11,936 nucleotides of DNA, from positions 1 to 11,936 of the IMG/VR virus record IMGVR_UViG_2681813004_000015. One strand, written 5' to 3'. The stretch's first letter is position 1. The number at the start of each line of letters is the position of its first letter. The notes below the pieces were generated by a model. That model did no database searches. It was not told the DNA's origin and was given only the letters and a program-made list of their open reading frames with translations. Origin of the DNA: a virus. Lineage: Duplodnaviria; Heunggongvirae; Uroviricota; Caudoviricetes. The translations under genes were made by a program, and so were the position numbers. Positions 1 through 11,936 of this stretch are shown one piece after another.

Positions 1-1
1 A

Positions 2-28
2 TTAGCCTGTTGGGGGATAGATCAGTGA
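2..28 (+). CDS. 3' end of upstream gene, possibly endolysin (last 8 codons only, ...LACWGIDQ)
   Basis: Frame 2 is open from the window edge to TGA at 26-28. That stop overlaps the GTG start of Rz (GTGA), the arrangement expected at an endolysin/Rz junction. Too short to identify the product. Confidence 0.3.
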
Positions 29-492
29 GCAGAGTCGCCGCGATTATTTATGCTCTGGTTATCTGCATCATCGTCTGCCTGTCGTGGGCGGTCAATCATT
101 ATCGTGATAACGCCATCGCCTATAAAGAACAGCGTGATAAAAAAGTCAGTGAGCTGAAGCAGGCGACCGCCACCATAACTGACATGCAGCAGCGCCAGCG
201 TGCTGCTGATGCACTCGATGCTAAATACACGAAGGAGTTAGCTGATGCGAAAGCTGAAAATGAAACTCTGCGCGCTGATGTTGCCGCTGGTCGTAAGCGC
301 CTGCGGGTCAATGCCAGTTGCTCCGCAGCCGTGCGTGAAGCCACCGGACCCACCAGCGTGGATAATGCAACCAGCCCCCGACTGGCAGACACCGCTGAAC
401 GGGATTATTTCACCCTCAGAGAACGGCTGATGACAATGCAAAAGCAACTGGAAGGGGCACAGGAGTATATCCGCACTCAGTGCATTAAGTAG
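25..492 (+). CDS. Rz: Rz i-spanin (inner-membrane spanin of lysis cassette)
   Basis: Translation resembles lambda Rz along its length: N-terminal TM helix ([19 protein letters not shown]) and a charged coiled-coil periplasmic domain. GTG at 25 sits where lambdoid Rz starts; the ORF track offers TTG at 10 as an alternative. Confidence 0.88.
245..430 (+). CDS. Rz1: Rz1 o-spanin lipoprotein, embedded in the +1 frame of Rz
   Basis: 61-aa ORF lying wholly inside Rz in another frame. Signal peptide with lipobox LVVSAC followed by a proline-rich mature region ([27 protein letters not shown]), the hallmark of lambda-type Rz1. Confidence 0.88.
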
Positions 493-534
493 CCTTTTTA
501 TCGTGGTAAACATTTCGCAGGGTATGAGGTATTT

Positions 535-885
535 ATGCCATCACTAATCCCACGTGCCTGCCGTAAGCGTGGATGTGCAGGTACAACCACAGACAGTTCT
601 GGTTACTGCGATAAACATCGTGGCGAAGGATGGGTACAGCATCAACGCGGACTGAGTCGCCACCAGCGTGGCTATGGCTCGAAATGGGATGCCATACGTG
701 CGCGCATACTGAAGCGTGATAATCATCTGTGTCAGAACTGCCTGCGCAATGGGAGAGCCGTTGAAGCCAGAACTGTGGACCACATCATTCCGAAAGCTCA
801 TGGTGGCACGGATGCAGACAGTAACCTGCAGAGTCTGTGCTGGCCCTGCCATAAAGCAAAAACAGCGCGCGAACGCATCAATTGA
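535..885 (+). CDS. HNH endonuclease (phage packaging-associated)
   Basis: Cys pairs (CRKRGC, CQNC, CWPCH) plus H-N-H core (DHIIPKAHGG...N...CWPCH). GAGG RBS ~6 nt upstream of ATG. Position directly upstream of terS is typical of HK97-like packaging modules. Confidence 0.88.
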   Translation: MPSLIPRACRKRGCAGTTTDSSGYCDKHRGEGWVQHQRGLSRHQRGYGSKWDAIRARILKRDNHLCQNCLRNGRAVEARTVDHIIPKAHGGTDADSNLQSLCWPCHKAKTARERIN

Positions 886-1031
886 TAACAGTTCCCATCT
901 GTAGGGGAGGGGCGGGTCAAATCTCTGCAGCCCTGGCTGCTCAGTACCGCCGCCTGACCTTTCCTCGCATCGCCGCAGGTTCGAAAACTTTTTTGGAAAT
1001 GTGAACAAACGATTGATAGGTAAGACCGATT

Positions 1032-1514
1032 ATGTCAGGACCCCCGAAAACCCCGCCACGCCTGCATTTGATACGAGGCAACCCCTCAAAGCGCCCCGTT
1101 AAAGACCCCAAAAAAACCGCTAAAAAGGATGAAAAAGGTCTTCCTAAAATTCCGCAGCATTTAGGGGCACAGGGGAAGTACTGGTTCAGGCGAATGGCGG
1201 AAGAGCTGAATGCGGAAGGGATCATTTCTCAGCTTGATGCGCGTGCGCTCGAGTTACTGGTGGAAGCCTACACCGAATATCGGCATCACTGCGAAACACT
1301 GGATGTTGAGGGGTATACCTATCGCACGGAAACGCAGAGTGGTGATGTACTGATTAAGGCGCACCCCGCGGCGGCAATGAAAGCGGATGCCTGGAAGCGG
1401 ATCCGGGCGATGCTTGCAGAGTTTGGTATGTCACCGGCAAGCCGGGCGAAAGTAAATACCACCGGACCGGATGATGTTGATCCGCTGGCGGAGCTTTTAA
1501 AAGCGAGAGACTGA
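1032..1514 (+). CDS. terS: terminase small subunit (P27-family-like)
   Basis: 160-aa product with basic N-terminus and the conserved middle region of P27-type small terminases. Stop overlaps the terL start (TGATG, 1512-1516), indicating translational coupling. Confidence 0.8.
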   Translation: MSGPPKTPPRLHLIRGNPSKRPVKDPKKTAKKDEKGLPKIPQHLGAQGKYWFRRMAEELNAEGIISQLDARALELLVEAYTEYRHHCETLDVEGYTYRTETQSGDVLIKAHPAAAMKADAWKRIRAMLAEFGMSPASRAKVNTTGPDDVDPLAELLKARD

Positions 1515-2707
1515 TGGCAAAAGTGGCTGACGGGATCCGCTACGCCGAACGTGTTGTTGCAGGAGAAATTGTCGCTGGCGAATTTGTCCGTCTGGCCTGC
1601 CAGCGTTTTCTTGATGATCTGAAGTACGGCGAAGAGCGGGGGATTTATTTCAGTGAACCCCGTGCGCAGCACATCCTGAATTTCTACAAATTTGTGCCCC
1701 ATGTAAAAGGGGCGCTGGCAGGTCAGCCCATTGAGTTGATGGACTGGCATGTTTTTATCCTCATAAATATTTTTGGTTTTGTCATTCCGCTGGTGAATGA
1801 AGAGACCGGGGAAGTTGTCATGCGCAGCGATGGCAGCGGACGCCCGGTGATGGTGCGCCGGTTCCGGACGGCGTACAACGAAGTCGCCCGTAAAAACGCA
1901 AAATCAACCCTGTCATCGGGTATCGGTCTTTATATGACGGGGGCAGATGGTGAAGGCGGTGCTGAGGTGTATTCAGCCGCAACCACGCGTGACCAGGCCA
2001 GAATCGTGTTTGAAGACGCCAAAAATATGGTCAGAAAAGCCCGGTCGACACTCGGGCGGTTGTTTGATTTCAACAAGCTGGCGATTTACCAGGAGCAGAG
2101 CGCATCAAAATTTGAACCGCTTTCCTCGGATGCAAACAACCTGGACGGTCTGAACATCCACTGCGCCATTATTGATGAGCTGCATGCACATAAAACCCGC
2201 GACGTGTGGGACGTTCTGGAAACGGCAACCGGTGCCCGTCTGCAGTCCCTGTTATTTGGTATCACCACGGCGGGCTTTAACAAGGAAGGAATTTGTTACG
2301 AGCAACGCGATTACGCCATCAAGGTATTGCGAGGCTATAACAGTGACGTGGAGGGCGCGGTAAAAGACGACTCCTACTTTGCGATTATTTACACGCTCGA
2401 TGAGGGAGATGATCCGTTTGATGAAACGGTCTGGCAGAAAGCGAATCCGGGCCTGGGCATCTGTAAACGCTGGGATGATCTGCGTCGTCTGGCGAAAAAA
2501 GCGAAGGAACAGGTTTCAGCGCGGGTGAATTTTTTTACCAAGAAAGTAACATCACGCCGTAACAACAGTGCGACCTGTCCTGATTTTTTTAGTAACCAAA
2601 TGAAAGAAAAAGATTTTTTCTTGTTCGTCGTTTTTGTTTTTTCTGGAAGGTTCTGGCTGTTTTCATCATTTGTGTATTGCACTGTGTATTGCAAAAACGG
2701 GTTATAA
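1514..2707 (+). pseudogene. terL: terminase large subunit, 3'-truncated: ATPase domain only, terminase-like to about nt 2545
   Basis: N-terminal ~345 aa read as an HK97-family TerL ATPase domain. After ...ARVNFFTKK the frame runs through T-rich low-complexity codons (FFLFVVFVF...) into the int upstream region. No nuclease domain is present. Confidence 0.8.
2671..2693. repeat. two direct copies of TGTGTATTGCA separated by 1 nt, 20 bp upstream of int
   Basis: Exact 11-mer at 2671-2681 and 2683-2693. Lies in the AT-rich segment between the terL break and int, next to a short palindrome GAAAAAGATTTTTC at ~2607-2620. Candidate integrase arm-type or regulatory sites. Confidence 0.4.
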
Positions 2708-2712
2708 ATCAC

Positions 2713-3921
2713 ATGGCGCTAAACAAACTGAGCGATAAAAAACTTCGTTCCCTGCTTGGGCGCAGGAGTGAGAGGCAGGAAACCATCGCTGATGGTAACG
2801 GGCTTTCGGTACGGGTCAGTAAATACGGATGTGTTAGTTTTGTTTTCTTTTACAGACTGGCGGGAAGGGGAACCGCGCCCATCTGGCTGACACTTGGAAA
2901 ATATCCTGATCTGAGTCTCAAATCAGCGAGAGAGATGCGCGATCAGTGTCGAACCTGGCTTGCGGAGGGCAGAGATCCACGGATTCAGATAAAAATTGAA
3001 CGGGAAGCCACTTTGCAACCTGTTACCGTTCGTGAGGCACTTGAATACTGGCTTGATAATTATGCAATGGATAAGCGTAGGGGAGCAGAACATATCAGGC
3101 AGTGCTTTGGTAAACATATTTATCCGGTGATTGGTCATGTACCACTTAGTGATTGCTCTATATCTATGTGGATCAAGTGTTTTGACAAAATAAAAAAAGT
3201 AGCACCTGTACAGGCCGGAGCTTTGTTGCGTATATCAAAACAGGCGCTTAAATTTTGTAGGGTAAGAAAATACGCGATTAGTCATGAAATTGATGATCTT
3301 GAGGTCTGTGATGTGGGAAAAAAGTCTGCGCGAAGAAGCAGGGTTTTAACAGATGATGAAATCAGAGATTTATGGCGAAGTATTAATACTGATTATGACA
3401 ATCACGAATTATCATATGAAAACCGAATTATTTTACGTTTCCTGGTAGTTTTTGGTTGTCGACTGTCAGAAGTATTACTGTCGTCCTGGGTAGAGTGGGA
3501 TTTTGATAAGAAATTATGGCGCGTTCCCGCTGATCATAGCAAAAATGGCAGGGAAATAATCAGACCGATTCCTGATGGCATGTTTAACTGGTTAGTTACG
3601 TTAAAAAAAATAACAGGTAACAAAGAAAATGTGATTGGGTTTGATATGCGTCAGTGTACGGCAAGCGTAACTATCGGTAAGACATGGAAAAGGATGAAAC
3701 ACTCGGAAAAATGGACGGCGCATGATATGCGAAGAGTGTTTGCCACAAAGCTAAGTGATCATGGTTTTGAACATAATGTGGTTGAACAGTTGCTTGGGCA
3801 CACATTAGGCGGTGTTGCCGGGGTTTATAACAGAAGTCAGTATATGGACAGAAAAAAAGAAGCTATGAACTGGTGGTACGACTATCTGAATAAGCTAATT
3901 AGTGGTGACGGTAATGATTGA
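2713..3921 (+). CDS. int: tyrosine integrase, P4-integrase family
   Basis: N-terminal arm-binding domain pattern (GLSVRVSKYG...FVFFYRL...LTLGKYPDLSLKSAREMR) and C-terminal catalytic residues (R...HDMRR...LLGH...Y). ATG at 2713 (MALNKLSD) preferred over the upstream ATG at 2677. Confidence 0.92.
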   Translation: MALNKLSDKKLRSLLGRRSERQETIADGNGLSVRVSKYGCVSFVFFYRLAGRGTAPIWLTLGKYPDLSLKSAREMRDQCRTWLAEGRDPRIQIKIEREATLQPVTVREALEYWLDNYAMDKRRGAEHIRQCFGKHIYPVIGHVPLSDCSISMWIKCFDKIKKVAPVQAGALLRISKQALKFCRVRKYAISHEIDDLEVCDVGKKSARRSRVLTDDEIRDLWRSINTDYDNHELSYENRIILRFLVVFGCRLSEVLLSSWVEWDFDKKLWRVPADHSKNGREIIRPIPDGMFNWLVTLKKITGNKENVIGFDMRQCTASVTIGKTWKRMKHSEKWTAHDMRRVFATKLSDHGFEHNVVEQLLGHTLGGVAGVYNRSQYMDRKKEAMNWWYDYLNKLISGDGND

Positions 3922-4135
3922 AATAGTTACGCGTGAAGAACTTGAAAATGATAAAACAATCGACAGGATGATTAAGGAAGATGAATGTGCATGGTTAACA
4001 GCTCTTGGCAGGAGACACAGAGCATTACTTGAAAAGGAAGGAAAATTTCCACGGAAAATATGTATTGGCCCACAAACAAAAGTCTGGCGCTTATCTGAGG
4101 TGCTGGAATGGGTAAAGGGTGAATGGAAACCCTGA
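3914..4135 (+). CDS. alpA: AlpA-family DNA-binding protein (excisionase/activator type)
   Basis: Small HTH protein with AlpA-like motif (LLEKEGKFPRKICIGPQTKVWRLSEVLEWV). ATG at 3914 overlaps the int 3' end by 8 nt. Followed by a hairpin terminator. Confidence 0.75.
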   Translation: MIEIVTREELENDKTIDRMIKEDECAWLTALGRRHRALLEKEGKFPRKICIGPQTKVWRLSEVLEWVKGEWKP

Positions 4136-4156
4136 ACTAAATTAAATGAGATATAA

Positions 4157-4185
4157 TCAACCCGTCTTTTGGCGGGTTTTTTTAT
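4157..4185 (+). terminator. intrinsic terminator after first alpA-like gene
   Basis: Hairpin AACCCG-loop-CGGGTT (4159-4178) followed by a T-run (TTTTTTTAT). Confidence 0.6.
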
Positions 4186-4198
4186 AGGTGATATTTTT

Positions 4199-4477
4199 AT
4201 GCAAAAATTTATTTATCCTACACCCGAAGAACGCATTCAGATTCTGAAAGAACATGGCGAACCGTATGATCGCCGTATACGCGAACATGAGTGTGCCAAT
4301 CGTACCGGGCTTTCAAGAAGCAGACGTTGGGTACTTGAACAGGAGGGAGCATTTCCTGCTCGTGCTCATTTAGGGAAAGTGTCTGTTTCCTGGTTGCTCT
4401 CTGATGTGCTCTGGTGGGTTATGCATCCGCCAGGAGTAAAGGAAGTAAACAGCCCATACAAAAACGCCAATAAGTAA
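4199..4477 (+). CDS. second AlpA-family DNA-binding protein (paralog)
   Basis: Motif LEQEGAFPARAHLGKVSVSWLLSDVLWWV parallels the upstream AlpA-like gene. ATG at 4199 has an AGGTGA RBS and lies just past the preceding terminator; the track start at 4169 falls inside the hairpin. Confidence 0.65.
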   Translation: MQKFIYPTPEERIQILKEHGEPYDRRIREHECANRTGLSRSRRWVLEQEGAFPARAHLGKVSVSWLLSDVLWWVMHPPGVKEVNSPYKNANK

Positions 4478-4486
4478 TTACCGACA

Positions 4487-4516
4487 ACCCCGCACCACGC
4501 AATGCGGGGTTTTTTG
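4487..4516 (+). terminator. intrinsic terminator after second alpA-like gene
   Basis: Stem ACCCCGCA / TGCGGGGT (4487-4494 / 4503-4510) with 8-nt loop, followed by TTTTTTG. Confidence 0.7.
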
Positions 4517-4534
4517 TATGTGAGGTAGAAAGTG

Positions 4535-5128
4535 ATGAATAAAAATATTGCCGCGACGGGCAAGGGTGACGCACGTCATATGAAAAAATTCTGTGATATT
4601 CGTGATCTGGTCGTTCTGCGCTTTGATAGTGTGAACGTTCGCGTGGTGTATCTGAACGGCGATCCGTGGTTTGTTGGCGCTGATGTGTGTGCGGCGCTGG
4701 AAATTAGCAACGTTACCGATGCTGTTTCAGTTCTGGATAGCGATGAGGTAATGACCCTAGCTTTAACCGAGGGTCATTCAGGTAAGCGTGGTGGTGCCAG
4801 AAGTTGGAATGTTGTATCAGAATCAGGTTTTTACAAGTTGATCGCCAGAAGTCGCAAAGCTGTTAATCCTGGCACGTTCGCCCATCGTTTCAGTAATTGG
4901 GTATTCAGAAATGTGATACCGGGTATCAGAAAAACGGGGGGTTATGGTATCCCGTGGGGCGCATTACAGGATTTTTCCCGCCGCAAAGAGCAATACCAGA
5001 TAAGTGCCAGCGAGAAGGGGAGGGAGCTACAGGCATGTAAGCGCAAAAAGCGTGAGCTGGAGGAAGAAGAAAAAAGGCTGATACGTGAATACCAGCCTGA
5101 GTTTTACTTTGGTGAGCGTATTCAGTAA
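4535..5128 (+). CDS. Bro-N domain protein (antirepressor-like) with C-terminal charged coiled-coil tail
   Basis: N-terminal region matches the Bro-N pattern (VRVVYLNGDPWFVGADVCAALEISNVTDAV...SGFYKLIARSRKAVNPGTFAHRFSNWVFRNVIPGIRKTGGY). GAGG RBS 9 nt upstream of ATG 4535. C-terminus is K/E-rich. Confidence 0.82.
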   Translation: MNKNIAATGKGDARHMKKFCDIRDLVVLRFDSVNVRVVYLNGDPWFVGADVCAALEISNVTDAVSVLDSDEVMTLALTEGHSGKRGGARSWNVVSESGFYKLIARSRKAVNPGTFAHRFSNWVFRNVIPGIRKTGGYGIPWGALQDFSRRKEQYQISASEKGRELQACKRKKRELEEEEKRLIREYQPEFYFGERIQ

Positions 5129-5282
5129 CCACACGCGGTGTTGATTATACGGTGCATCGTGTTGACCGGGAAGCTACCCACCAGCAAGGCAAAATCTTCT
5201 GCTAAAAATGACATATGGCCAGTCGTCCGGAAAGCATGAAATTTTACAAAAATGGAAAATGAAGATTTTTATTGTGCTGGTG

Positions 5283-5318
5283 GGTAAAAACAAAAAGCGC
5301 CCCGTTACCGGAGCGCCC
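5283..5318 (-). terminator. intrinsic terminator on the minus strand
   Basis: Minus-strand hairpin (GCGCUCC / GGGGCGC, loop GGUAAC; plus 5297-5316) followed by UUUUUGUUUUU (plus 5286-5296). Confidence 0.5.
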
Positions 5319-5360
5319 TTGCGAACAATTAACCTACTGCGCAAAAAATGAATCTGTGCG
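5286..5360 (-). ncRNA. candidate small RNA (~75 nt) bounded by promoter-like element and terminator; hypothetical
   Basis: Minus strand has an extended -10 (TGATATAAT, plus 5366-5374) and the terminator at 5283-5318 about 75 nt downstream. No convincing ORF or RBS in between. Purely structural inference. Confidence 0.25.
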
Positions 5361-5365
5361 GGGGG

Positions 5366-5395
5366 ATTATATCAACCGTGGTCGAAATGACCATA
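5366..5395 (-). promoter_or_regulatory. sigma70-like promoter with extended -10 on the minus strand
   Basis: Minus strand reads ...TGGTCA-(15/16 nt)-TGATATAAT; perfect TATAAT preceded by TG at the extended -10 position; weak -35. Confidence 0.35.
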
Positions 5396-5410
5396 GTTGC
5401 AGGATAACAG

Positions 5411-5442
5411 GCAAAACAAAGGCCACCCGCTACGGTGGCCCC
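5411..5442 (-). terminator. intrinsic terminator downstream of the minus-strand repressor gene
   Basis: Perfect 7-bp stem GGCCACC / GGTGGCC (5421-5427 / 5434-5440) with 6-nt loop; on the minus strand followed by UUUGUUUUG. Confidence 0.55.
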
Positions 5443-5542
5443 TCGACACAAGCACACGTTATCCCCAACGCATGAGCATAACCAACAATGCCACATTTAC
5501 GGCTGGTGGGCAATGTGATCAGTGTGCTGGCTTGCTGGTGGG

Positions 5543-5848
5543 TTATTCCTGCTCTTTGGCCTTGCGCCGCTGGAGTTCTTCACGCGCGACGGCAACAAGT
5601 TGCCCGATCTCCTCGGCAGCTTTGACTCCGATTTTTTCCACCTGAGCCAGTGCATCAAGTGAAGAAACTAGGGGATTTTCTCCGCTTCCTTCTGCCTGGC
5701 GGCGGGCGATCTCTCCGCGCATGGCGGTTACTATGAATCCGGCGTTGCTTTCGCCGTCCAATTTTACGGATTCCATGCCCTCCATAACATCGTGGGGAAC
5801 TCGGACGGTGGTCAATTGTGATTTAGCGTTTTTGTTGGTAGTCGCCAT
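5543..5848 (-). CDS. putative ribbon-helix-helix (Arc/Mnt/CopG-like) transcriptional repressor
   Basis: 101-aa ORF with GGAG RBS 8 nt upstream of ATG (5848). Segment RVPHDVMEGMESVKLDGESNAGFIVTAMRGEI fits the RHH beta-strand/helix pattern of Arc/Mnt. Transcribed divergently from the replication operon across an operator-bearing promoter. Confidence 0.6.
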   Translation of the reverse strand: MATTNKNAKSQLTTVRVPHDVMEGMESVKLDGESNAGFIVTAMRGEIARRQAEGSGENPLVSSLDALAQVEKIGVKAAEEIGQLVAVAREELQRRKAKEQE

Positions 5849-5868
5849 AACTGAAACTCCTCAAATTT

Positions 5869-5948
5869 GGTGTGTTTCAGTATACACAAAAAAGAAATAC
5901 AAAAAAGGCTTGACGTGTGTTTCACTCCTAAATAACATGAAACACACC
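5869..5948 (+). promoter_or_regulatory. promoter for the rightward operon overlapped by operator repeats (GTGTGTTTCA motif)
   Basis: -35 TTGACG (5910-5915), 17-bp spacer, -10 TAACAT (5933-5938). Motif GGTGTGTTTCA at 5869-5879, GTGTGTTTCA at 5915-5924 and its inverted copy TGAAACACACC at 5938-5948; the latter two form a palindrome bracketing the -10. Confidence 0.5.
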
Positions 5949-6044
5949 AAAGGTTTTATTGAAATACAAACGACGAAACCCCGCACTGTTGGAGCAGTAA
6001 CGGGGCTTCTAACCACCAACGATAGCAAGAGTATCGAGGTAGCT

Positions 6045-6248
6045 ATGAGAAATCATACCACACACCCGCAAGGGCGGGACTCGCACAACCTGAATAAATA
6101 CATCTGGCGTTTTATCGCCCTGAGCACGGCACAACCGCGCGTGATTACCATTGAGGCCACCAGCGAACAGGAAGCACGCCAGCAATCTCCTGATGGCTGT
6201 GTGATGGTATTCGCCTCCCGTATTCGTCAGGAGGTGCACCATGATTAA
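6045..6248 (+). CDS. hypothetical small protein (67 aa), first gene of the rightward operon
   Basis: ATG 6045 preceded by GAGGTAG RBS; the longer track ORF from 5721 overlaps the repressor gene and promoter. Stop overlaps the next start. Confidence 0.5.
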   Translation: MRNHTTHPQGRDSHNLNKYIWRFIALSTAQPRVITIEATSEQEARQQSPDGCVMVFASRIRQEVHHD

Positions 6249-6453
6249 TCTGTCACTTACCGACCTTAACCGCATTCAGTTTCGTGAGAAATTTACCGGG
6301 CAGCTACTGGTCAATGTGGATAAAGGTCGCGTGGTGTGTAATTACCACCTGCCAGATGAAGCAATTGTCGCAACAAGGGAATCATTACAGGAACTCGCAG
6401 AACGTGCCGGAATGATTAATGCGAATATTCAGGGGGTGAGCCATGTGCAATAA
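6241..6453 (+). CDS. hypothetical small protein (70 aa)
   Basis: AGGAGG RBS immediately upstream of ATG 6241; overlaps the previous ORF by 8 nt and the next by 11 nt, indicating coupling. Confidence 0.55.
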   Translation: MINLSLTDLNRIQFREKFTGQLLVNVDKGRVVCNYHLPDEAIVATRESLQELAERAGMINANIQGVSHVQ

Positions 6454-6772
6454 CACCCGTCCGGACGCAGCCGCCGAAGCTATCAGAACGCTGATGCACG
6501 CGCTGATTGATATTTCATGCACGGCAGCAACCGCAGAAAAACACATTACCAGAGAGACCGAAGCTATCAGAACGCTGATGCACGCGCTGATTGATATTTC
6601 ATGCACGGCAGCAACCGCAGAAAAACACATTACCAGAGAGACGGAATATACAGGGGCAATAATCCCGCATTCGCTGGTCTACACACAGCTTACCGCTGAT
6701 ATGGCGCTGAATGAGGCTAAAGCCATCCTGATTGCTGATTGTGAAAATGGCGGGGGCGATTATGCGAAATAA
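6443..6772 (+). CDS. hypothetical protein (109 aa) containing a 28-residue exact tandem repeat
   Basis: GGGGTGA RBS upstream of ATG 6443. Residues EAIRTLMHALIDISCTAATAEKHITRET occur twice in tandem, encoded by an 84-bp direct repeat. Confidence 0.55.
   Translation: MCNNTRPDAAAEAIRTLMHALIDISCTAATAEKHITRETEAIRTLMHALIDISCTAATAEKHITRETEYTGAIIPHSLVYTQLTADMALNEAKAILIADCENGGGDYAK
6476..6643 (+). repeat. 84-bp tandem direct repeat, two copies, in-frame within a small ORF
   Basis: 6476-6559 and 6560-6643 are identical except for the final base (83/84). Confidence 0.95.
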
Positions 6773-6980
6773 ACATGATATTGAAGACCTGGCATTTGAA
6801 GCCCTGCACTCTGCGAAAAAAATCAGGGAAGTCGTCAATATGTGGATGAACAGCCTTAGCACCGATAAATCCGATAGCAGAGAAGAAATTCTTATTTCTT
6901 TGTTGTTAGACCTGGCAAATACACAGGTTTCTCTGACATCTGATATTGAGCTCGCCGCTAAAAAGCTGCCTCTGGAGTAA
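6762..6980 (+). CDS. hypothetical small protein (~72 aa)
   Basis: ATG 6762 with G-rich RBS; overlaps the stop of the preceding ORF. The track ORF starts earlier at 6732, so the start is uncertain. Confidence 0.45.
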   Translation: MRNKHDIEDLAFEALHSAKKIREVVNMWMNSLSTDKSDSREEILISLLLDLANTQVSLTSDIELAAKKLPLE

Positions 6981-6986
6981 AAAAAC

Positions 6987-7301
6987 ATGAAAAAGAAAAA
7001 TTCTGGCTTTACTGCCAGCGGTCACGCTCGGCCTGAAATCCGCCCCGGTGATATTTTCCGGGATAAATACGGCAGCACGATAACGATTAAAACCGTCGAT
7101 GATTTTCGTGTGACCTATATCCGCGAAGGTTATGCGCATCCCTGCGTGTCGTCACATATGCGCTTTGACAGGGAGTTCACCTTGGTAAGCAAAGCACCAC
7201 CAGCAGAATTAAGCGACATCGACAGAATCATGCGCGTTACAGGAATGGAACGCATTAAGGCAGTACGTGAAATTATTCGTGAACGGGGAAAGGCAAAATG
7301 A
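6987..7301 (+). CDS. hypothetical protein (104 aa), translationally coupled to the replication protein gene
   Basis: GGAG RBS upstream of ATG 6987; its stop overlaps the start of the downstream 707-aa gene (ATGA at 7298-7301). Confidence 0.55.
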   Translation: MKKKNSGFTASGHARPEIRPGDIFRDKYGSTITIKTVDDFRVTYIREGYAHPCVSSHMRFDREFTLVSKAPPAELSDIDRIMRVTGMERIKAVREIIRERGKAK

Positions 7302-9421
7302 AGCGCGCACCAAACTTAAAGCACCAGCCAGCCGACAAAATGACGGAGGTTATCATCTTTGCGGGTAGTGATGCGTGGAGCCATGCGAAAGAGTGGCAGG
7401 AATGGGCAGGTAAACATATTGCCGCCGACAATGTGCCGCCTGTCGTTCTGTCAGATGAACACCTGAAAGATATTACTGGTTATCAAATTATTGATGATAG
7501 CCGTCAGTGTGTGCGTATTTACCGCGCAGGGCACATCACTGAACGTAGCCTCACACAGATCGTCACGTTGCTGGCTGTGGCTGGCGTGAAGACCGTATAC
7601 GAATACGCGGGGATAACTGACACCAGCCCGGCGGATTTATCCGACCAGTTGCCTCGCCTCAAAGACGAATACGAGCGCGGGGAAAGTCTGGTGTTGCCCT
7701 TAAAGAAAAAAATCACAGAAAGCCCGGGTGATGATGAATTAAAGCCCCGCGTTGAAAGCCGCGCCGATGGTGTTTTCTGGGTAACGCCAAAAGTGGATAA
7801 GCAGTCAGGCGAAATTATCCGGCCTGAAACGTGGTTATGCTCCCCGCTTGAGCTACTGGGAACGGGGACAATCGGCAAAGAGCATTACCGCGTGATGCGC
7901 TGGAAAAAGCCAGCAAACCATGACGTCATCACGATGGCGGTTCCGTGCGGTGGCATTGGCGACCGTGACGGCTGGCGGCTGCTGAAAGACCACGGACTGA
8001 ACGTGACAACCAACGGTAAATACAGGGCTATCCTGGCTGACTGGATGCAGTTAAGCGGAAACCATGAGGAATGGCAGTTAAGCACAACAACGGGCTGGCA
8101 TTTTGGCGCGTACATCATGCCGGACGGTTCGGTCATTGGTGATTGCGAAAAGCCAGTCCTGTTTACCGGAAAAACGGCTGCCGTTAATGGTTATTCCGTG
8201 GCAGGAACGGCGGAGGGCTGGCGCGATACCGTGGCGCGACTGGCTGGTGGTAATCCGTCCATGATGCTGGGTGTGGCGGTATCGCTATCCGCACCATTAA
8301 TCGGGCTGGTGGGTGCTGACGGCTTCGGGGTACATCTTTTCGAACAGTCATCAGCAGGGAAAACCACCACACAGAATATCGCATCCAGTTTATGGGGGGA
8401 GCCGGACGCGCAGCGGCTGACCTGGTACGGTACAGCGTTAGGTATCGCCAACGAGGCAGAGGCACACAACGACGGGCTGTTACCCCTGGATGAAATAGGC
8501 CAGGCCGGAAACGCGCGGGAGGTGTCCACATCGGCCTATACGCTGTTTAACGGTTCCGGGAAATTACAGGGGGCGAAGGACGGCGGCAACCGGGAGATAA
8601 AACACTGGCGAACGGTGGCAATCAGTACCGGAGAAATGGACGTTGAAACATTCCTCAAAACGGAAGGGATAAAAGTCAAGGCGGGGCAGCTTGTCCGCCT
8701 GCTTAACGTGCCAATGGAAAAAGCCACACAATTTCACGAATACAGCACCGGAAAGGCGCACGCAGACGCGTTAAAGGATGCCTGGACAGAAAATCACGGG
8801 GCGGCGGGGCGTGAATGGGTTAAATGGCTGGCAGACCATCAGCAGGAGGCAAAGGACACGGTAAGGACATGCCGTGAGCGGTGGCGCAACCTGATACCGG
8901 AGAGCTACGGCGAACAGGTTCACCGTGTGGGGGAGCGATTTGCCATACTGGAGGCCGCGCTTGTGCTTTCAGGTCATGTTACTGGCTGGGATGAGCAGGA
9001 ATGCCGCGATGCCATACAGCATAATTTTAATGCCTGGGTGAAGGAGTTCGGCACGGGTAACAGGGAGTTTAAACAGATGGTTGAACAGGCAGAGGCTTTT
9101 TTAGCGTCGTTCGGATTCAGCAGATACCTTCCGTGGCCCAACACCGACGAGCGTGATTTACCGATTAAAGAGCTTGCCGGATACAGAAAGGGGAGTATCA
9201 GAAACGAAGATGACGAGTTCCGTTTTTACACGTTCCCGCATGTATTTGAGGGTGAGATAGCACAGGGATTTAATCCGTCTCACTTTGCCCGCGTGTTGAG
9301 TGCTGCCGGAATGCTGGAAGCGGGTAACGATCGCCGTTACAAGAAAAAGGCGCTCGGCAAAATTGGGGGGAAGCAGCATGTTTTTTACGTGCTGATGTTC
9401 CAGCCTGAGGCAGAAGATTAA
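7298..9421 (+). CDS. replication protein: P-loop NTPase of the DUF927 / primase-helicase type (PICI pri-rep-like)
   Basis: 707-aa ORF with Walker A (FEQSSAGKTT) and Walker B (GLLPLDEIGQ) motifs. General resemblance to DUF927-type replicative helicase/primase proteins of satellites and plasmids. Immediately followed by iterons. Confidence 0.8.
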   Translation: MKRAPNLKHQPADKMTEVIIFAGSDAWSHAKEWQEWAGKHIAADNVPPVVLSDEHLKDITGYQIIDDSRQCVRIYRAGHITERSLTQIVTLLAVAGVKTVYEYAGITDTSPADLSDQLPRLKDEYERGESLVLPLKKKITESPGDDELKPRVESRADGVFWVTPKVDKQSGEIIRPETWLCSPLELLGTGTIGKEHYRVMRWKKPANHDVITMAVPCGGIGDRDGWRLLKDHGLNVTTNGKYRAILADWMQLSGNHEEWQLSTTTGWHFGAYIMPDGSVIGDCEKPVLFTGKTAAVNGYSVAGTAEGWRDTVARLAGGNPSMMLGVAVSLSAPLIGLVGADGFGVHLFEQSSAGKTTTQNIASSLWGEPDAQRLTWYGTALGIANEAEAHNDGLLPLDEIGQAGNAREVSTSAYTLFNGSGKLQGAKDGGNREIKHWRTVAISTGEMDVETFLKTEGIKVKAGQLVRLLNVPMEKATQFHEYSTGKAHADALKDAWTENHGAAGREWVKWLADHQQEAKDTVRTCRERWRNLIPESYGEQVHRVGERFAILEAALVLSGHVTGWDEQECRDAIQHNFNAWVKEFGTGNREFKQMVEQAEAFLASFGFSRYLPWPNTDERDLPIKELAGYRKGSIRNEDDEFRFYTFPHVFEGEIAQGFNPSHFARVLSAAGMLEAGNDRRYKKKALGKIGGKQHVFYVLMFQPEAED

Positions 9422-9442
9422 CCCCCTGTGTGAGGTGAAAAG

Positions 9443-9568
9443 TTGCGGGTTATGCGGGTTATCTTGTGTATAAGTGCATTAACTGTATGAATAAAAAGGA
9501 AATCAATAACCCGCACGTAACCCGCAAAACGGCAGTTATAACCCGCAAAAGTGCGATTATAACCCGCA
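9443..9568. repeat. iteron-type replication origin: six copies of ATAACCCGCA-like 10-mer flanking an AT-rich tract
   Basis: Direct copies at 9506-9515, 9517-9526 (GTAACCCGCA), 9538-9547 and 9559-9568, with start-to-start spacings of 11, 21 and 21 bp. Two inverted tandem copies at 9443-9462. AT-rich tract 9463-9505 between them. Confidence 0.65.
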
Positions 9569-9631
9569 GAATTTCACCGTAAGGGTGTAAACAAGCGTAA
9601 CAATCAACGTTAAAACCGGAGAACAGACAGC

Positions 9632-10057
9632 ATGACAGCACAGATAGCGGCTTACGGGCGGCTGGTGGCTGACCCGCAGTTAAAGACCACCAGCAAAGGG
9701 ACACAAATGGCGATGGCGAGTATGGCGGTTCCCCTGCCGTGCAGCCAGGCAGATGACGGAACGGCGACGATGTGGTTATCCGTCCTGGCGTTTGGCAGAC
9801 AGGCCGACGCACTGGCCAGACACCACAAAGGCGAACTGGTGAGCGTGGCGGGTAACATGCAGGTAAGCCAGTGGACAGGCCAGAACGGCGAAACGCGGCA
9901 GGGCTGGCAGGTCATCGCAGACAGCGTAATCAGTGCGCGGACAGTGCGACCGGGCGGCAAAAAAGGCCAGCAGGGCCAGGCTACTGACGCACTGAACAGG
10001 GCAAAACAACAGACAGGCCAGCACGATGATCCGTACGGGGACGGGATACCGTTTTAA
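9632..10057 (+). CDS. ssb: single-stranded DNA-binding protein (short phage/plasmid-type SSB)
   Basis: OB-fold pattern parallels E. coli SSB (GRLVADPQLK..., WLSVLAFGRQADALARHHKGELVSVAGNMQVSQWTGQNGETRQGWQV), a G/Q-rich linker, and C-terminal tail ...DDPYGDGIPF resembling the canonical DDDIPF tip. Confidence 0.82.
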   Translation: MTAQIAAYGRLVADPQLKTTSKGTQMAMASMAVPLPCSQADDGTATMWLSVLAFGRQADALARHHKGELVSVAGNMQVSQWTGQNGETRQGWQVIADSVISARTVRPGGKKGQQGQATDALNRAKQQTGQHDDPYGDGIPF

Positions 10058-10072
10058 GCAGTGAGGTACAGC

Positions 10073-10354
10073 ATGATTAAAGACAGCAAAGCGGAAGAAC
10101 TGGAGGCTAAAGGGCTGTACCGGAGAGCGGCGGCACGTTGGGCTGATGTTATGTGGCTGGTGAGCACTGACAAGGAGCGCGAACAAGTGGCAAAGCGTCG
10201 CGCGGAATGTATCCGTAAGGCAGCGCGCCAACCAGTCATACCGGATAATTTCGGAATACTGAAAGAGGCCATAAACCGCACACATACCGGGATGGGCTTA
10301 CAGAAACCTGGCGGTGAGATGTTCAGGAACTACCCGAAAAAAAGGGATAATTGA
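10073..10354 (+). CDS. perC: PerC-family transcriptional regulator (Pch-like)
   Basis: N-terminus MIKDSKAEELEAKGLYRRAAARWADVM... matches the PerC/Pch signature. GAGG RBS 6 nt upstream of ATG 10073; the track start at 10061 is GTG. Confidence 0.75.
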   Translation: MIKDSKAEELEAKGLYRRAAARWADVMWLVSTDKEREQVAKRRAECIRKAARQPVIPDNFGILKEAINRTHTGMGLQKPGGEMFRNYPKKRDN

Positions 10355-10399
10355 TAACGGTTGTTAACTGTTTCTGGTATCGTGGCAGCAGGAGGAAAC

Positions 10400-10648
10400 A
10401 TGCCAGTGACATTTGAAGAAGTCCAGCAACATAAAAAGTTTCATGGTTTTGATGATCTGGAAACCACGACAGCAAAAAAATATCGCCGTCTGCTTTCTTC
10501 CGATGCGTTGTTTGTTGTGGATCATCATGATTTTCTGCGCAGCTCACTGACCGGGGAAATTTTCGCAACCAACCGTGAGCAGGTGGAAGCGATGATCGAA
10601 TATCTGTGGAAAATAAGGCGCAGAATGCGTGATCCCGTGAAACGGTAG
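10400..10648 (+). CDS. hypothetical small protein (82 aa) downstream of perC
   Basis: Strong AGGAGG RBS 3 nt upstream of ATG 10400; followed by a strong terminator. A second near-identical copy lies at 11165-11413. Confidence 0.6.
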   Translation: MPVTFEEVQQHKKFHGFDDLETTTAKKYRRLLSSDALFVVDHHDFLRSSLTGEIFATNREQVEAMIEYLWKIRRRMRDPVKR

Positions 10649-10652
10649 AATA

Positions 10653-10687
10653 ATAATGGCCTGGTATTTTCCAGGCCATTATTTTTA
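10653..10687. terminator. strong bidirectional intrinsic terminator
   Basis: Perfect 10-bp stem AATGGCCTGG / CCAGGCCATT (10655-10664 / 10671-10680), loop TATTTT, T-run downstream and A-rich tract upstream. Confidence 0.75.
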
Positions 10688-10735
10688 GAAGTGTTGCTGA
10701 ATGAACATTGCTTTTTTCAGTTCATTTTCTGACAT
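10685..10735 (-). pseudogene. remnant of the 157-aa minus-strand gene: first 14 codons only, then deletion junction
   Basis: 10693-10749 matches 11880-11936, which holds the RBS and first codons (MSENELKKAMFIQQ) of the intact gene at 11449-11922. Here the frame ends after 16 codons at the junction with the terminator. Confidence 0.7.
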
Positions 10736-10809
10736 AGTTCGTTCCTCCTGATTAACGAGCAGAAAATGTACGGAACAGCTTATTTATTTTTTCAGGTTTT
10801 GTAAATTAT

Positions 10810-10839
10810 TTGTTCGTGGTTGTTCCAGGTTGTTCACTG
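10810..10839. repeat. three helically phased TTGTTC repeats (10-bp period)
   Basis: TTGTTCGTGG / TTGTTCCAGG / TTGTTCACTG at 10810, 10820 and 10830. On the minus strand they sit just upstream of a TTTACA -35-like hexamer in the leader of the 157-aa gene. Confidence 0.45.
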
Positions 10840-10896
10840 AGCGGATCGGCATATTTTACCCGAACTGAATCATGATTATTCTCGCCCGTGGTGCCA

Positions 10897-11119
10897 GGAC
10901 GTTTGGGCTGATGTTATGTGGCTGGTGAGCACTGACAAGGAGCGCGAACAAGTGGCAAAGCGTCGCGCGGAATGTATCCGTAAGGCAGCACGCCCACCAG
11001 TCATACCGGATAATTTCGGAATACTGAAAGAGGCCATAAACCGCACACATACCGGGATGGGCTTACAGAAACCTGGCGGTGAGATGTTCAGGAACTACCC
11101 GAAAAAAAGGGATAATTGA
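10897..11119 (+). pseudogene. 5'-truncated second copy of perC (lacks first ~21 codons, RBS and start)
   Basis: Homology to perC begins at the codon for ARWADVM. Upstream is unrelated sequence with a 1-nt insertion at the junction. Longest ORF is the internal-Met fragment 10916-11119, which carries one substitution versus copy A (Q to P). Confidence 0.7.
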
Positions 11120-11164
11120 TAACGGTTGTTAACTGTTTCTGGTATCGTGGCAGCAGGAGGAAAC

Positions 11165-11413
11165 ATGCCAGTGACATTTGAAGAAGTCCAGCAACATAAA
11201 AAGTTTCATGGTTTTGATGATCTGGAAACCACGACAGCAAAAAAATATCGCCGTCTGCTTTCTTCCGATGCGTTGTTTGTTGTGGATCATAATGATTTTC
11301 TGCGCAGCTCACTGACCGGGGAAATTTTCGCAACCAACCGTGAGCAGGTGGAAGCGATGATCGAATATCTGTGGAAAATAAGGCGCAGAATGCGTGATCC
11401 CGTGAAACGGTAG
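11165..11413 (+). CDS. hypothetical small protein (82 aa), second copy
   Basis: Same RBS and ORF as 10400-10648 with one amino-acid difference (H to N). Confidence 0.6.
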   Translation: MPVTFEEVQQHKKFHGFDDLETTTAKKYRRLLSSDALFVVDHNDFLRSSLTGEIFATNREQVEAMIEYLWKIRRRMRDPVKR

Positions 11414-11417
11414 AATA

Positions 11418-11451
11418 ATAATGGCCTGGTATTTTCCAGGCCATTTTTTTA
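11418..11451. terminator. strong bidirectional intrinsic terminator, second copy
   Basis: Stem AATGGCCTGG / CCAGGCCATT (11420-11429 / 11436-11445), loop TATTTT, T-run 11444-11450. Serves the converging genes on both strands. Confidence 0.75.
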
Positions 11452-11922
11452 GAAGTCGATCTCTGTATCGCGATTAAATTCATCGCTAAGGTAAAGTGCT
11501 TCGCTTGGGCATTTTCCGTTTTCCAGTAATGTTTCCCAGAAATCTTTATCGAAACACCCCTCAAGATACAGATAGCGGCAGATGTGAAGTAAATCACTTC
11601 GTGTCCATCCGTGCATGCTGCTACTTGTTACACCATATTCACTTTCTAGTTTATAGAATGTGAGCGCCTCCCGGTCATGCCAGGCTTTGCACAGACGATC
11701 GTATATCTTTTTAGCTTTGTTTTTAGATGTGCCGAAAAACTCTTCGTAAATTTCATGTGGGCGAGTAGGAATGCTTCCGTCGCCATCCTGCAAGAAAGGA
11801 TAAACATCTGCCTCCCAGGCATACACGTAAGAATCGCTGAACTCATCATAGTGTTTACCAAGGTGGAGAATCTGCAATCGTTGCTGAATGAACATTGCTT
11901 TTTTCAGTTCATTTTCTGACAT
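11449..11922 (-). CDS. hypothetical acidic, aromatic-rich protein (157 aa), function unknown
   Basis: Minus-strand ORF with AGGAGG RBS (plus 11931-11936) 8 nt upstream of ATG (11922). Converges on the bidirectional terminator. Rich in D/E and Y/F/W. No family recognised by eye. Confidence 0.7.
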   Translation of the reverse strand: MSENELKKAMFIQQRLQILHLGKHYDEFSDSYVYAWEADVYPFLQDGDGSIPTRPHEIYEEFFGTSKNKAKKIYDRLCKAWHDREALTFYKLESEYGVTSSSMHGWTRSDLLHICRYLYLEGCFDKDFWETLLENGKCPSEALYLSDEFNRDTEIDF

Positions 11923-11936
11923 AGTTCGTTCCTCCT

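Follow-up and report, generated by a model that had tools for sequence, protein, structure and literature searches.

Organization of the Locus

The window, i.e., the whole stretch of 11,936 nucleotides analysed here (positions 1 to 11,936 of IMG/VR record IMGVR_UViG_2681813004_000015), contains the 5' fragment of a prophage terL gene (1514–2541, plus strand; codons 1–343), which is cut by an island inserted in the same strand orientation. The island begins within terL, at an attachment core at 2535–2541, and extends beyond 10057 as far as the window reaches; the initial annotation had placed its start at 2713, the first nucleotide of the integrase gene.

The tyrosine integrase (2713–3921, plus strand) matched the Pfam families Phage_integrase (1.4e-18) and Arm-DNA-bind_3 (1.1e-17). 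Its gene is overlapped at the end by the first of two AlpA genes (3914–4135, plus strand; Phage_AlpA, 2.5e-9), the second being located at 4199–4477 (plus strand; 7.2e-10). The Bro zone consists of a gene for a Bro-N protein (4532–5128, plus strand; Pfam Bro-N, 2.1e-16; phrog_2593, anti-repressor, 7e-77). The integrase was identical in 400 of 402 positions to that of the published element Eco146.15.A_Terminase_1_246 from E. coli UMNF18 (L005, AGTD01000001.1:1112532–1127509), and it is assigned to the clade of helper-embedded PICIs (HE-PICIs), in agreement with the site group, by this pairwise identity to a published member rather than by a tree.

A divergent gene at 5543–5848 (minus strand) belongs to the YlcI/YnfO family (NCBIfam YlcI_YnfO_N, 3.6e-19; phrog_6522) and codes for a putative regulator. 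It gave no Pfam match above threshold, the only match of RHH type being below threshold (PSK_trans_fac, E 0.015); comparison with solved structures produced no useful match, and a single-sequence AlphaFold model was of low confidence (pLDDT 64). The sole match in an Rfam scan was to an sRNA at chance level and is really a terminator hairpin at 5290–5344 (minus strand).

Upstream of the large replication gene lie five small coupled ORFs (6045–7301, plus strand), whose ends overlap or nearly abut: an Icd-like ORF (6045–6248; NCBIfam, 1.3e-18), three ORFs at 6241–6453, 6443–6772 and 6732–6980, and a DUF4222 ORF (6987–7301; 8.8e-19). An in-frame duplication of 84 bp is present at 6474–6646. No defence systems were detected among the accessory ORFs with PADLOC.

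Replication Module

The replication protein, Rep (7298–9421, plus strand), is a DUF927 helicase (Pfam, 1.4e-45; phrog_1139, 1e-173; NCBIfam Cch1), the family to which the initial annotation had assigned it, and shows a sequence relationship to a "Pathogenicity island protein" of known structure (PDB 8tch, 3e-15) as well as to the Cch helicases of SCCmec (5dgk). Profile searches showed that it is not a D5_N/Pox_D5 primase of the P4 alpha type. Downstream, at 9444–9568, two direct and four inverted TGCGGGTTA iterons surround an AT-rich spacer; the direct pair occupies 9444–9461 and the four inverted copies are found at 9507–9568. The six matches compare with an expected number of 0.13, and six were reached in none of 200 shuffles. 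The iterons are predicted to form an origin next to the gene for an SSB (9632–10057, plus strand; Pfam SSB, 8.4e-16), in keeping with the proximity of SSB and origin that had been remarked upon earlier.

The backbone of the initial annotation, i.e., int, two alpA genes, Bro-N, five small ORFs, the DUF927 gene, iterons and SSB, was recovered in this way, and Pfam searches confirmed the families of integrase, AlpA, Bro-N, DUF927, SSB and PerC; the label of RHH repressor, on the other hand, remains putative for the YlcI/YnfO-family gene.

Right Part of the Window and Late Module of Relatives

The SSB gene is followed by a PerC-family gene (10061–10354, plus strand; Pfam, 3e-35) and an ORF of 95 amino acids (10361–10648, plus strand; phrog_1957). 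A partial second copy, comprising the 3' part of perC and the 95-aa ORF (10899–11456, plus strand), is 99.1% identical to 10135–10692. The last gene of the window (11449–11922, minus strand) encodes a conserved protein of 157 amino acids without family match; in relatives, this is the last gene ahead of a capsid module.

No structural gene is present in the window, which covers the contig of the element itself up to position 11936; since the window stops before the capsid module, the type of the late zone has to be deduced from relatives. Eight contexts of an identical 157-aa protein were available, and all eight go on to Phage_capsid, Peptidase_S78, Phage_portal, HNH, Terminase_4 and TerL; no island among them contains tail or lysis genes. 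The same applies to the best match in E. coli, and the full module was present in the inspected genomes that match most of the window, namely L001, L005, L007, L009 and L010. The late module of the relatives comprises capsid, S78 protease, portal, connector, HNH, TerS and TerL. Capsid-forming PICIs (cf-PICIs) are recognized by their own capsid, protease, portal, head-tail connector or adaptor, HNH, terS and terL, by the lack of tail or holin/lysis genes, and by a size of about 10–16 kb (Alqurainy et al. 2023; SatelliteFinder cfPICI, PMC10085698). Judging from these gene families, the zone beyond the window in close relatives is a capsid and packaging module of cf-PICI type, and not a set of capsid-redirection genes; packaging-redirection genes had been expected there previously. 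Tail, holin and lysis genes were found neither in the part of the island within the window nor between attL and attR of relatives, which measure 15–16 kb each.

The TerL of this late module is only 31% identical to the TerL of the surrounding prophage. The block from SSB and PerC to the late genes is 97–99% identical to that of cf-type islands which occupy chromosomal sites and possess other integrases. In the decayed relative ETEC4090 (L012), whose attL is 100% identical to that of the window, the capsid and packaging module has been lost.

Target Gene and Attachment Site

The terL fragment matched TerL_ATPase and part of TerL_nuclease (Pfam), covering just positions 2–68 of the 286 positions of the latter profile. 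Alignment with an intact TerL of 585 amino acids showed 343/346 identical residues up to K343 and divergence thereafter. The 3' remnant of terL and the remaining prophage were found after the island in the relative L001.

The crossover core of attL, TTACCAA (2535–2541, plus strand; terL codons 341–343), was identified with the help of the empty site in L002, and the supplement of PMC10111431 gives the same 7 bp for the A_Terminase_1_246 group. TTACCAA occurs again at attR in relatives (L005, L007–L010). The window holds the core of attL only, attR being located beyond it, and the two-sided repeat was read from six relatives (L001, L005, L007–L010), in which 7-bp direct repeats are present on both flanks of the island. 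An apparent lack of a common core, suggested by TTACCAA at attL of the window and TCACGAA at attR of L001, was rejected, because attL of L001 also reads TCACGAA; two core variants exist, and both are listed as identity blocks of attL/attR of the site group (PMC10111431).

Among 5426 complete E. coli genomes, the same terL site is uninterrupted in 905, and attL in the occupied state was detected in 35. In IMG/VR, attL was present in 14 prophage-type viral contigs; a search for the attP junction expected after excision gave no match.

Between core and integrase gene lies the P' arm of the attachment site (2542–2712, plus strand), which is crossed by the residual terL frame (terL'); its stop codon is at 2705–2707, 5 nt ahead of the ATG of int. 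In sequence, the attL arm agrees fully with published attL sites of the group. It contains the doubled motif TGTGTATTGCaCTGTGTATTGCA (2671–2693, plus strand), a putative arm site of the integrase, at a distance of 133 bp from the core centre (2538). The published distance is 132 ± 2 bp, and the motif is described as a signature unique to HE-PICIs, in which the doubled motif tgTGTATTGCantgTGTATTGCa is found on both sides of the attP centre, about 132 bp away in the downstream and about 81 bp away in the upstream direction (PMC10111431). The upstream copy falls outside the window; it is situated about 79–98 bp before the attR core in L001, depending on the reference point, and was present in all six relatives checked. 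Neither the P' arm nor the junction of the perC duplication gave a match when each was scanned against species-representative genomes.

Assignment of the Element

The layout of the island is PICI-like and not that of a classical P4-like element, as had been proposed: the left half of a PICI (int, alpA and pri/rep) is there in the window, the zones follow each other in the order Integration, Bro, Replication and Late, and the element is integrated in, and disrupts, a late gene of a prophage in the orientation of the late operon, as is characteristic of HE-PICIs. We assign a probability of roughly 0.85 to the reading that positions 2535–11936 represent the left 9.4 kb, approximately, of an HE-PICI of about 15–16 kb, belonging to site group A:Terminase_1:246, capsid-forming as judged from its closest relatives, and inserted at a 7-bp core in terL of a lambdoid prophage with HK97-type head, codirectionally with the late operon. 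The capsid-building type of PICI most likely fits the island best. The prophage around it is the probable helper; this role had been suspected by the initial annotation for a merely adjacent HK97/lambda-like phage, whose terL is in fact split by the island. The suggestion of a distinct satellite lineage did not hold, in view of the integrase, the identical attL and the doubled motif of the published HE-PICI clade. The island is an example of a kind of satellite that was already published (Tommasini, Mageeney & Williams 2023, PMC10111431); located inside terL of a prophage which it probably exploits, the island is a good example of known biology.

Several other explanations were considered. A classical PICI of Gram-negative bacteria that forms no capsids could reside in terL and use capsids and terminase of the helper, as proposed for 11capE or EcCICFT073, with only redirection genes beyond the window. 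The absence of structural genes from the window itself would agree with this, as would the variability of late zones among HE-PICIs (PMC10111431) and the decayed ETEC4090 without capsid module; but the full capsid-TerL module follows the last gene of the window in all eight contexts as well as in the five genomes named above, and an element dependent on the TerL of its helper would gain little from breaking it, which makes this explanation unlikely. A P4-like satellite, in which homologues of Sid, Psu and Delta for remodelling of capsid size would follow further to the right, is suggested by the Arm-DNA-bind_3 domain of P4 type in the integrase, AlpA and the Icd-like ORF, and integrases of HE-PICIs fall within a wider clade which holds the P4 integrase (PMC10111431). 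However, when the ORFs of the island within the window were searched against Pfam, PHROG and NCBIfam, no match to Psu, Sid or Delta was obtained, in line with the initial annotation, nor any to the alpha primase-helicase or epsilon; Rep contains DUF927 instead of D5_N/Pox_D5, a C4/isrK immunity RNA was not found in the Rfam scan, and the late zone of relatives is a head and packaging module of HK97 type. This origin thus appears extremely improbable.

The region might also be no satellite at all, but either a mosaic module belonging to the surrounding prophage or a second prophage, degraded and no longer mobile, that lies within the first. Its physical position inside a prophage, the phage-like head and terminase genes that are carried, the decay of some copies and the missing free attP form in viral contigs could be taken in this sense. 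Against it stand the precise 7-bp direct repeats and the empty site in 905 genomes, the intact int, alpA and rep genes, a size of 15–16 kb, without tail and lysis genes, that is conserved across several genomes and integration sites, and the presence of AlpA, a signature of satellites that was nearly absent from prophages in a published survey (PMC10111431). We regard this reading as very unlikely; the region is an internal part of a conventional prophage in the physical sense only and forms a discrete insertion bounded by att sites of its own.

For annotation, the HE-PICI assignment means that the region should be treated as a composite, in which a satellite of about 15–16 kb interrupts terL of a lambdoid prophage, rather than as a defective prophage with broken terminase or as a new kind of island. 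Helper-embedded satellites illustrate that a phage parasite can control an essential gene of its helper in cis, and the site group offers a natural system for studying how a satellite with capsids and terminase of its own times its exit from a packaging gene of its helper. Current understanding is not changed by the present findings.

Possible Mode of Action

Between terS and int, no promoter-like site was detected on the plus strand, and the one terminator-like match is within chance expectation. In 16 of 22 occupied sites, the terL' stop precedes the start codon of int by 5 nt, an arrangement which suggests translational coupling; in five of the 22, terL' and int are joined in one reading frame by way of a T6/T7 run.

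The following sequence of events could be envisaged. The integrated island keeps TerL of the helper split, as is seen in the window, and the presumed loss of function would block packaging of helper DNA. Upon induction of the prophage, late transcription would proceed via terS and the terL fragment into int and alpA. Through the doubled TGTATTGC arm motifs, Int and AlpA would then excise the island at TTACCAA, and terL would be restored exactly (TTT ACC AAA; F-T-K). Experimental data on excision after induction of the helper (qPCR and deep sequencing) and on its timing come solely from the related element 11capE, of which virions were not recoverable (PMC10111431). From its family, the DUF927 helicase would be expected to fire the iteron origin at 9444–9568, aided by the SSB of the island. 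By analogy with EcCIEDL933, the late module beyond the window would build small capsids and package the island, and helper tails would be acquired subsequently.

The split of terL may serve as a lock, since TerS, TerL and capsid are probably supplied by the satellite itself, which would need tails only. It is possible, although this is put forward tentatively, that the split constitutes a deliberate packaging lock, which would turn the prophage into a factory for tails and lysis until the satellite has left, and that release of the lock depends perhaps on the ribosomes of the helper: as the terL' frame ends close to int or is fused to it, synthesis of Int would be coupled to translation of the late genes of the helper. 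Neither the combination of cf-PICI and helper-embedded location nor the coupling of terL' and int is spelled out in the HE-PICI and cf-PICI papers considered here (PMC10111431; 10.1101/2022.09.08.507074).

Comparison with Known Satellites

The closest counterpart is the HE-PICI Eco146.15.A_Terminase_1_246 (PMC10111431), which shares with the island the target codon in terL, the core TTACCAA, the attL arm, the doubled TGTATTGC motif with its spacing, and the order of zones Integration, Bro, Replication (with SSB) and Late. Across most of the island, nucleotide identity within the site group amounts to about 96–98%. The differences are minor: the partial duplication of the perC region (10899–11456) and the 84-bp duplication (6474–6646) set the window apart, as does its block of small ORFs, a mosaic variant located between Bro and Rep.

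The likeness to the prototype cf-PICI, EcCIEDL933 (Alqurainy et al. 2023; 10.1101/2022.09.08.507074), is one of gene content: int, alpA and rep are followed, in relatives of the island, by a module from capsid to TerL, tail and lysis genes are missing, and the size is about 15 kb. For cf-PICIs, six attB sites in the bacterial chromosome were described (10.1101/2022.09.08.507074), whereas the present element is located inside terL of its own helper. With satellite phage P4, the island has in common a related type of integrase, a regulator of the AlpA family and the need for a helper to supply virion parts; it differs by the lack of sid, psu, delta, the alpha primase-helicase and the CI RNA, and by the possession of its own SSB and DUF927 helicase and, in relatives, of its own capsid genes. 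SaPI-type PICIs of Gram-positive bacteria are similar with respect to Rep, which is related to 8tch and the SCCmec Cch helicase, and to the iteron origin flanking an AT-rich stretch directly downstream of rep. In contrast to these elements, no Stl-type master repressor was recognised in the island, and induction would be expected to occur through AlpA; furthermore, SaPIs remodel the capsids of their helpers, whereas the present element, to judge from its relatives, would make its own.

Insertion site and island ends

Profile searches of the ORFs identified positions 1–2541 as the late region of a prophage, with an Rz-type lysis gene (10–492; Phage_lysis, 7e-50), an HNH endonuclease (535–885), a small terminase of the P27 family (1032–1514) and a large terminase gene, the helper terL, beginning at 1514. 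The TerL frame of the window contained the ATPase domain and only positions 2–68 of the 286-position nuclease profile. Compared with the intact 585-aa TerL of E. coli Z1323CEC0011, 343/346 residues were identical up to lysine 343; beyond it the frame entered unrelated sequence, and the GC content dropped at the break from about 0.53 to about 0.39–0.45. Without an insertion, terL reads GTGAATTTTTTTACCAAACACATGAATGTG, while the window has GTGAATTTTTTTACCAA joined to GAAAGTAACATC; thus, the crossover core is TTACCAA (2535–2541), corresponding to codons F341-T342-K343 of terL.

The best E. coli match, strain KFu019 (94% of the window covered, 96.9% identity), carried this island as well; downstream of it lie the 3' part of terL that the window lacks and, after that, portal, protease, capsid and tail genes of the prophage. 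The 7 bases were repeated at the right end in six relatives (TTACCAA on both sides in five, TCACGAA on both sides in KFu019), whose islands measured 15–16 kb. Among 5426 complete E. coli genomes, the terL site was uninterrupted in 905 and an occupied attL was present in 35. The helper terL is split, the island supplies no replacement sequence, and a TGA stop precedes the in-frame remnant at attR. The initial annotation had considered the adjacent phage as a possible helper; a prophage does lie beside the island, but structurally the decisive point is that the island interrupts the helper's terL instead of merely adjoining it. The 3' remnant of terL opens at an in-frame ATG (M346) and is called as a separate 241-aa TerL_nuclease ORF (locus coordinates 2462–3187 in strain UMNF18 and 2180–2905 in the relative L008).

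Membership in a published satellite group

In the survey by Tommasini, Mageeney and Williams (2023, PMC10111431), 491 satellites with integrases of a single clade are described as helper-embedded PICIs (HE-PICIs); their 14 insertion sites fall in late genes of prophages, and the elements are oriented like the late operon. Their zones are Integration (Int, AlpA), Bro, Replication (primase, SSB, DUF5906) and Late; a doubled motif specific to this clade, tgTGTATTGCantgTGTATTGCa, flanks the attP centre at distances of 81 ± 2 bp (upstream) and 132 ± 2 bp (downstream), and the identity block of site group A_Terminase_1_246 is "ttaccaa" or "tcacgaa" (supplement of PMC10111431). Zone order, doubled motif and motif spacing all match in the window, where TGTGTATTGCaCTGTGTATTGCA is found just upstream of int (2671–2693), at a distance of 133 bp from the centre of the core; relatives have a further copy close to their right island end. 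The published attL of Eal37.16.A_Terminase_1_246.2 is identical to the window over the junction and the P' arm. The listed member Eco146.15 (AGTD01000001.1:1112532–1127509) falls within the UMNF18 locus, and its integrase is identical to that of the window in 400/402 positions. Based on attL identity, integrase similarity and the 133-bp spacing, the island is, as judged from its sequence, a member of group A_Terminase_1_246. The original assignment as PICI-like rather than P4-like was correct; the proposed distinct lineage is this already published group.

Gene content and replication region

Profile searches recovered all gene families named initially: the integrase (2713–3921), two AlpA proteins (3914–4135 and 4199–4477), Bro-N (4532–5128), the DUF927 replication protein (rep, 7298–9421), SSB (9632–10057) and PerC (10061–10354). 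The five small coupled ORFs upstream of the DUF927 gene are present as well, overlapping or nearly abutting, the first being Icd-like and the last DUF4222. The "RHH repressor" label of the divergent gene (5543–5848, minus strand) found no such backing: the product belongs to the YlcI/YnfO family, the sole RHH-type match was below threshold, and the structure predicted from the single sequence was of too low quality for use. At the sequence level, the genes int, rep, ssb and the two alpA copies are intact, as is the origin. Strong terminator-like hairpins occur 3' of each alpA gene (4159–4178 and 4486–4511, plus strand), and two more follow the YlcI-like gene (5443–5418 and 5320–5293, minus strand); the sole Rfam match over the window was one of these hairpins.

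The predicted iterons between rep and ssb (9444–9568) proved real: an AT-rich spacer separates two direct from four inverted copies of TGCGGGTTA, six matches versus 0.13 expected by chance. Sequence similarity links the DUF927 helicase both to the SCCmec Cch helicase and to a solved structure named "Pathogenicity island protein" (8tch, 3e-15). A second cluster at the right end of the island (KFu019 locus, 34849–35003) is a mirror image of the origin, with three copies of TGCGGGTTA separated by an AT-rich spacer from two inverted ones; six further relatives (L005–L010) have it too, including L008, where the replication protein is AAA_25 and the rep-proximal cluster is absent. It could be a second origin or a Rep-binding site in copy control, and is not spelled out in the cited HE-PICI and cf-PICI (capsid-forming PICI) papers.

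Capsid module in relatives

The last complete gene of the window (11449–11922, minus strand) encodes 157 aa and had no match in Pfam, PHROGs, NCBIfam or PADLOC. An identical ORF occurs in cf-type islands at no fewer than four distinct integration sites, where it always sits immediately before the capsid gene, encoded on the other strand. The protein was looked up by exact sequence, and the genes that follow it are the same in all eight places listed: Phage_capsid (381 aa), Peptidase_S78, Phage_portal, a 99-aa connector-like ORF, HNH, a Terminase_4 TerS and a 553-aa TerL; tail or lysis genes were found in none of the eight. This is the component set of cf-PICIs (preprint 10.1101/2022.09.08.507074), although the window ends short of the module. 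Where packaging-redirection genes had been expected beyond the window, the relatives indicate a complete set of capsid and packaging genes. The TerL of the island (in relatives) has 31% identity to the interrupted helper TerL.

Five of the eight contexts are terL insertions; in the other three, islands with other integrases and differing replication proteins (D5_N/Pox_D5, AAA_25 or DUF927) occupy ordinary chromosomal sites, yet in the SSB-PerC-late block they match the window at 97–99% identity. Since this block is common to islands with other integrases, the window island is apparently a mosaic, its left half of HE-PICI type and its right half, with the late module read from relatives, of cf-PICI type. 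This combination of lifestyles is not spelled out in the cited papers on either group.

A P4-like identity was rejected: Pfam, PHROG and NCBIfam scans of the island ORFs in the window gave no psu, sid, delta or alpha match, an Rfam scan gave no C4/isrK RNA, and Rep belongs to another family. A module of the prophage, or a nested dead prophage, is unlikely in view of the precise repeats at the island ends, the common empty site, the size conserved across several integration sites, and the presence of AlpA together with the absence of tail genes. A PICI that does not form capsids would require the copy in this genome to differ from all inspected relatives; the window stops before the module and one relative, E. 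coli ETEC4090, has lost it, whereas all eight listed contexts of the identical 157-aa ORF carry it. At the ETEC4090 locus (19001–25500), where attL is 100% identical, the island is present in decayed form: a deletion from inside the DUF927 gene to helper gp17 took out the origin, late module, attR and helper head genes.

Proposed life cycle

Because the terS–int interval contained no plus-strand promoter-like site and no convincing terminator, helper late transcription would be expected to read through into int-alpA, as proposed by Tommasini et al. (PMC10111431). Within 2525–2715, the frame of the 5' terL fragment (terL') continues for 54 codons past the island boundary, crossing the P' arm, and ends 5 nt short of the int ATG. 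The same spacing was found in 16/22 occupied sites, an earlier stop in one, and in five a T6-to-T7 change fuses terL' in frame to int. The geometry, which is not spelled out in the cited HE-PICI and cf-PICI papers, suggests translational coupling; the fusions may be homopolymer sequencing artefacts, and are flagged only as "reannotate terminase/int fusion" in the supplement of PMC10111431. Int and AlpA would then excise the island, restoring TTT ACC AAA, and replication from the iteron origin would be started by the DUF927 helicase. By analogy with the cf-PICI prototype EcCIEDL933, products of the late module would form small capsids and fill them with island DNA, and helper tails would be added afterwards. 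Excision and timing were measured only for a relative at the capE site, from which no virions were recovered (PMC10111431).

Sequence duplications

An 84-bp in-frame tandem duplication (6474–6646; 2.1 copies, 98% identical) lies inside a 109-aa ORF (6443–6772, phrog_5146); the KFu019 equivalent is a single copy. A partial tandem duplication covers 10135–11936: positions 10899–11456, containing the 3' part of perC and a 95-aa ORF, repeat 10135–10692 with 99.1% identity, and 11880–11936 repeat 10693–10749, the first copy having lost the body of the 157-aa gene. The junction had no match in species-representative genomes, and KFu019 possesses a single copy of this repeat.
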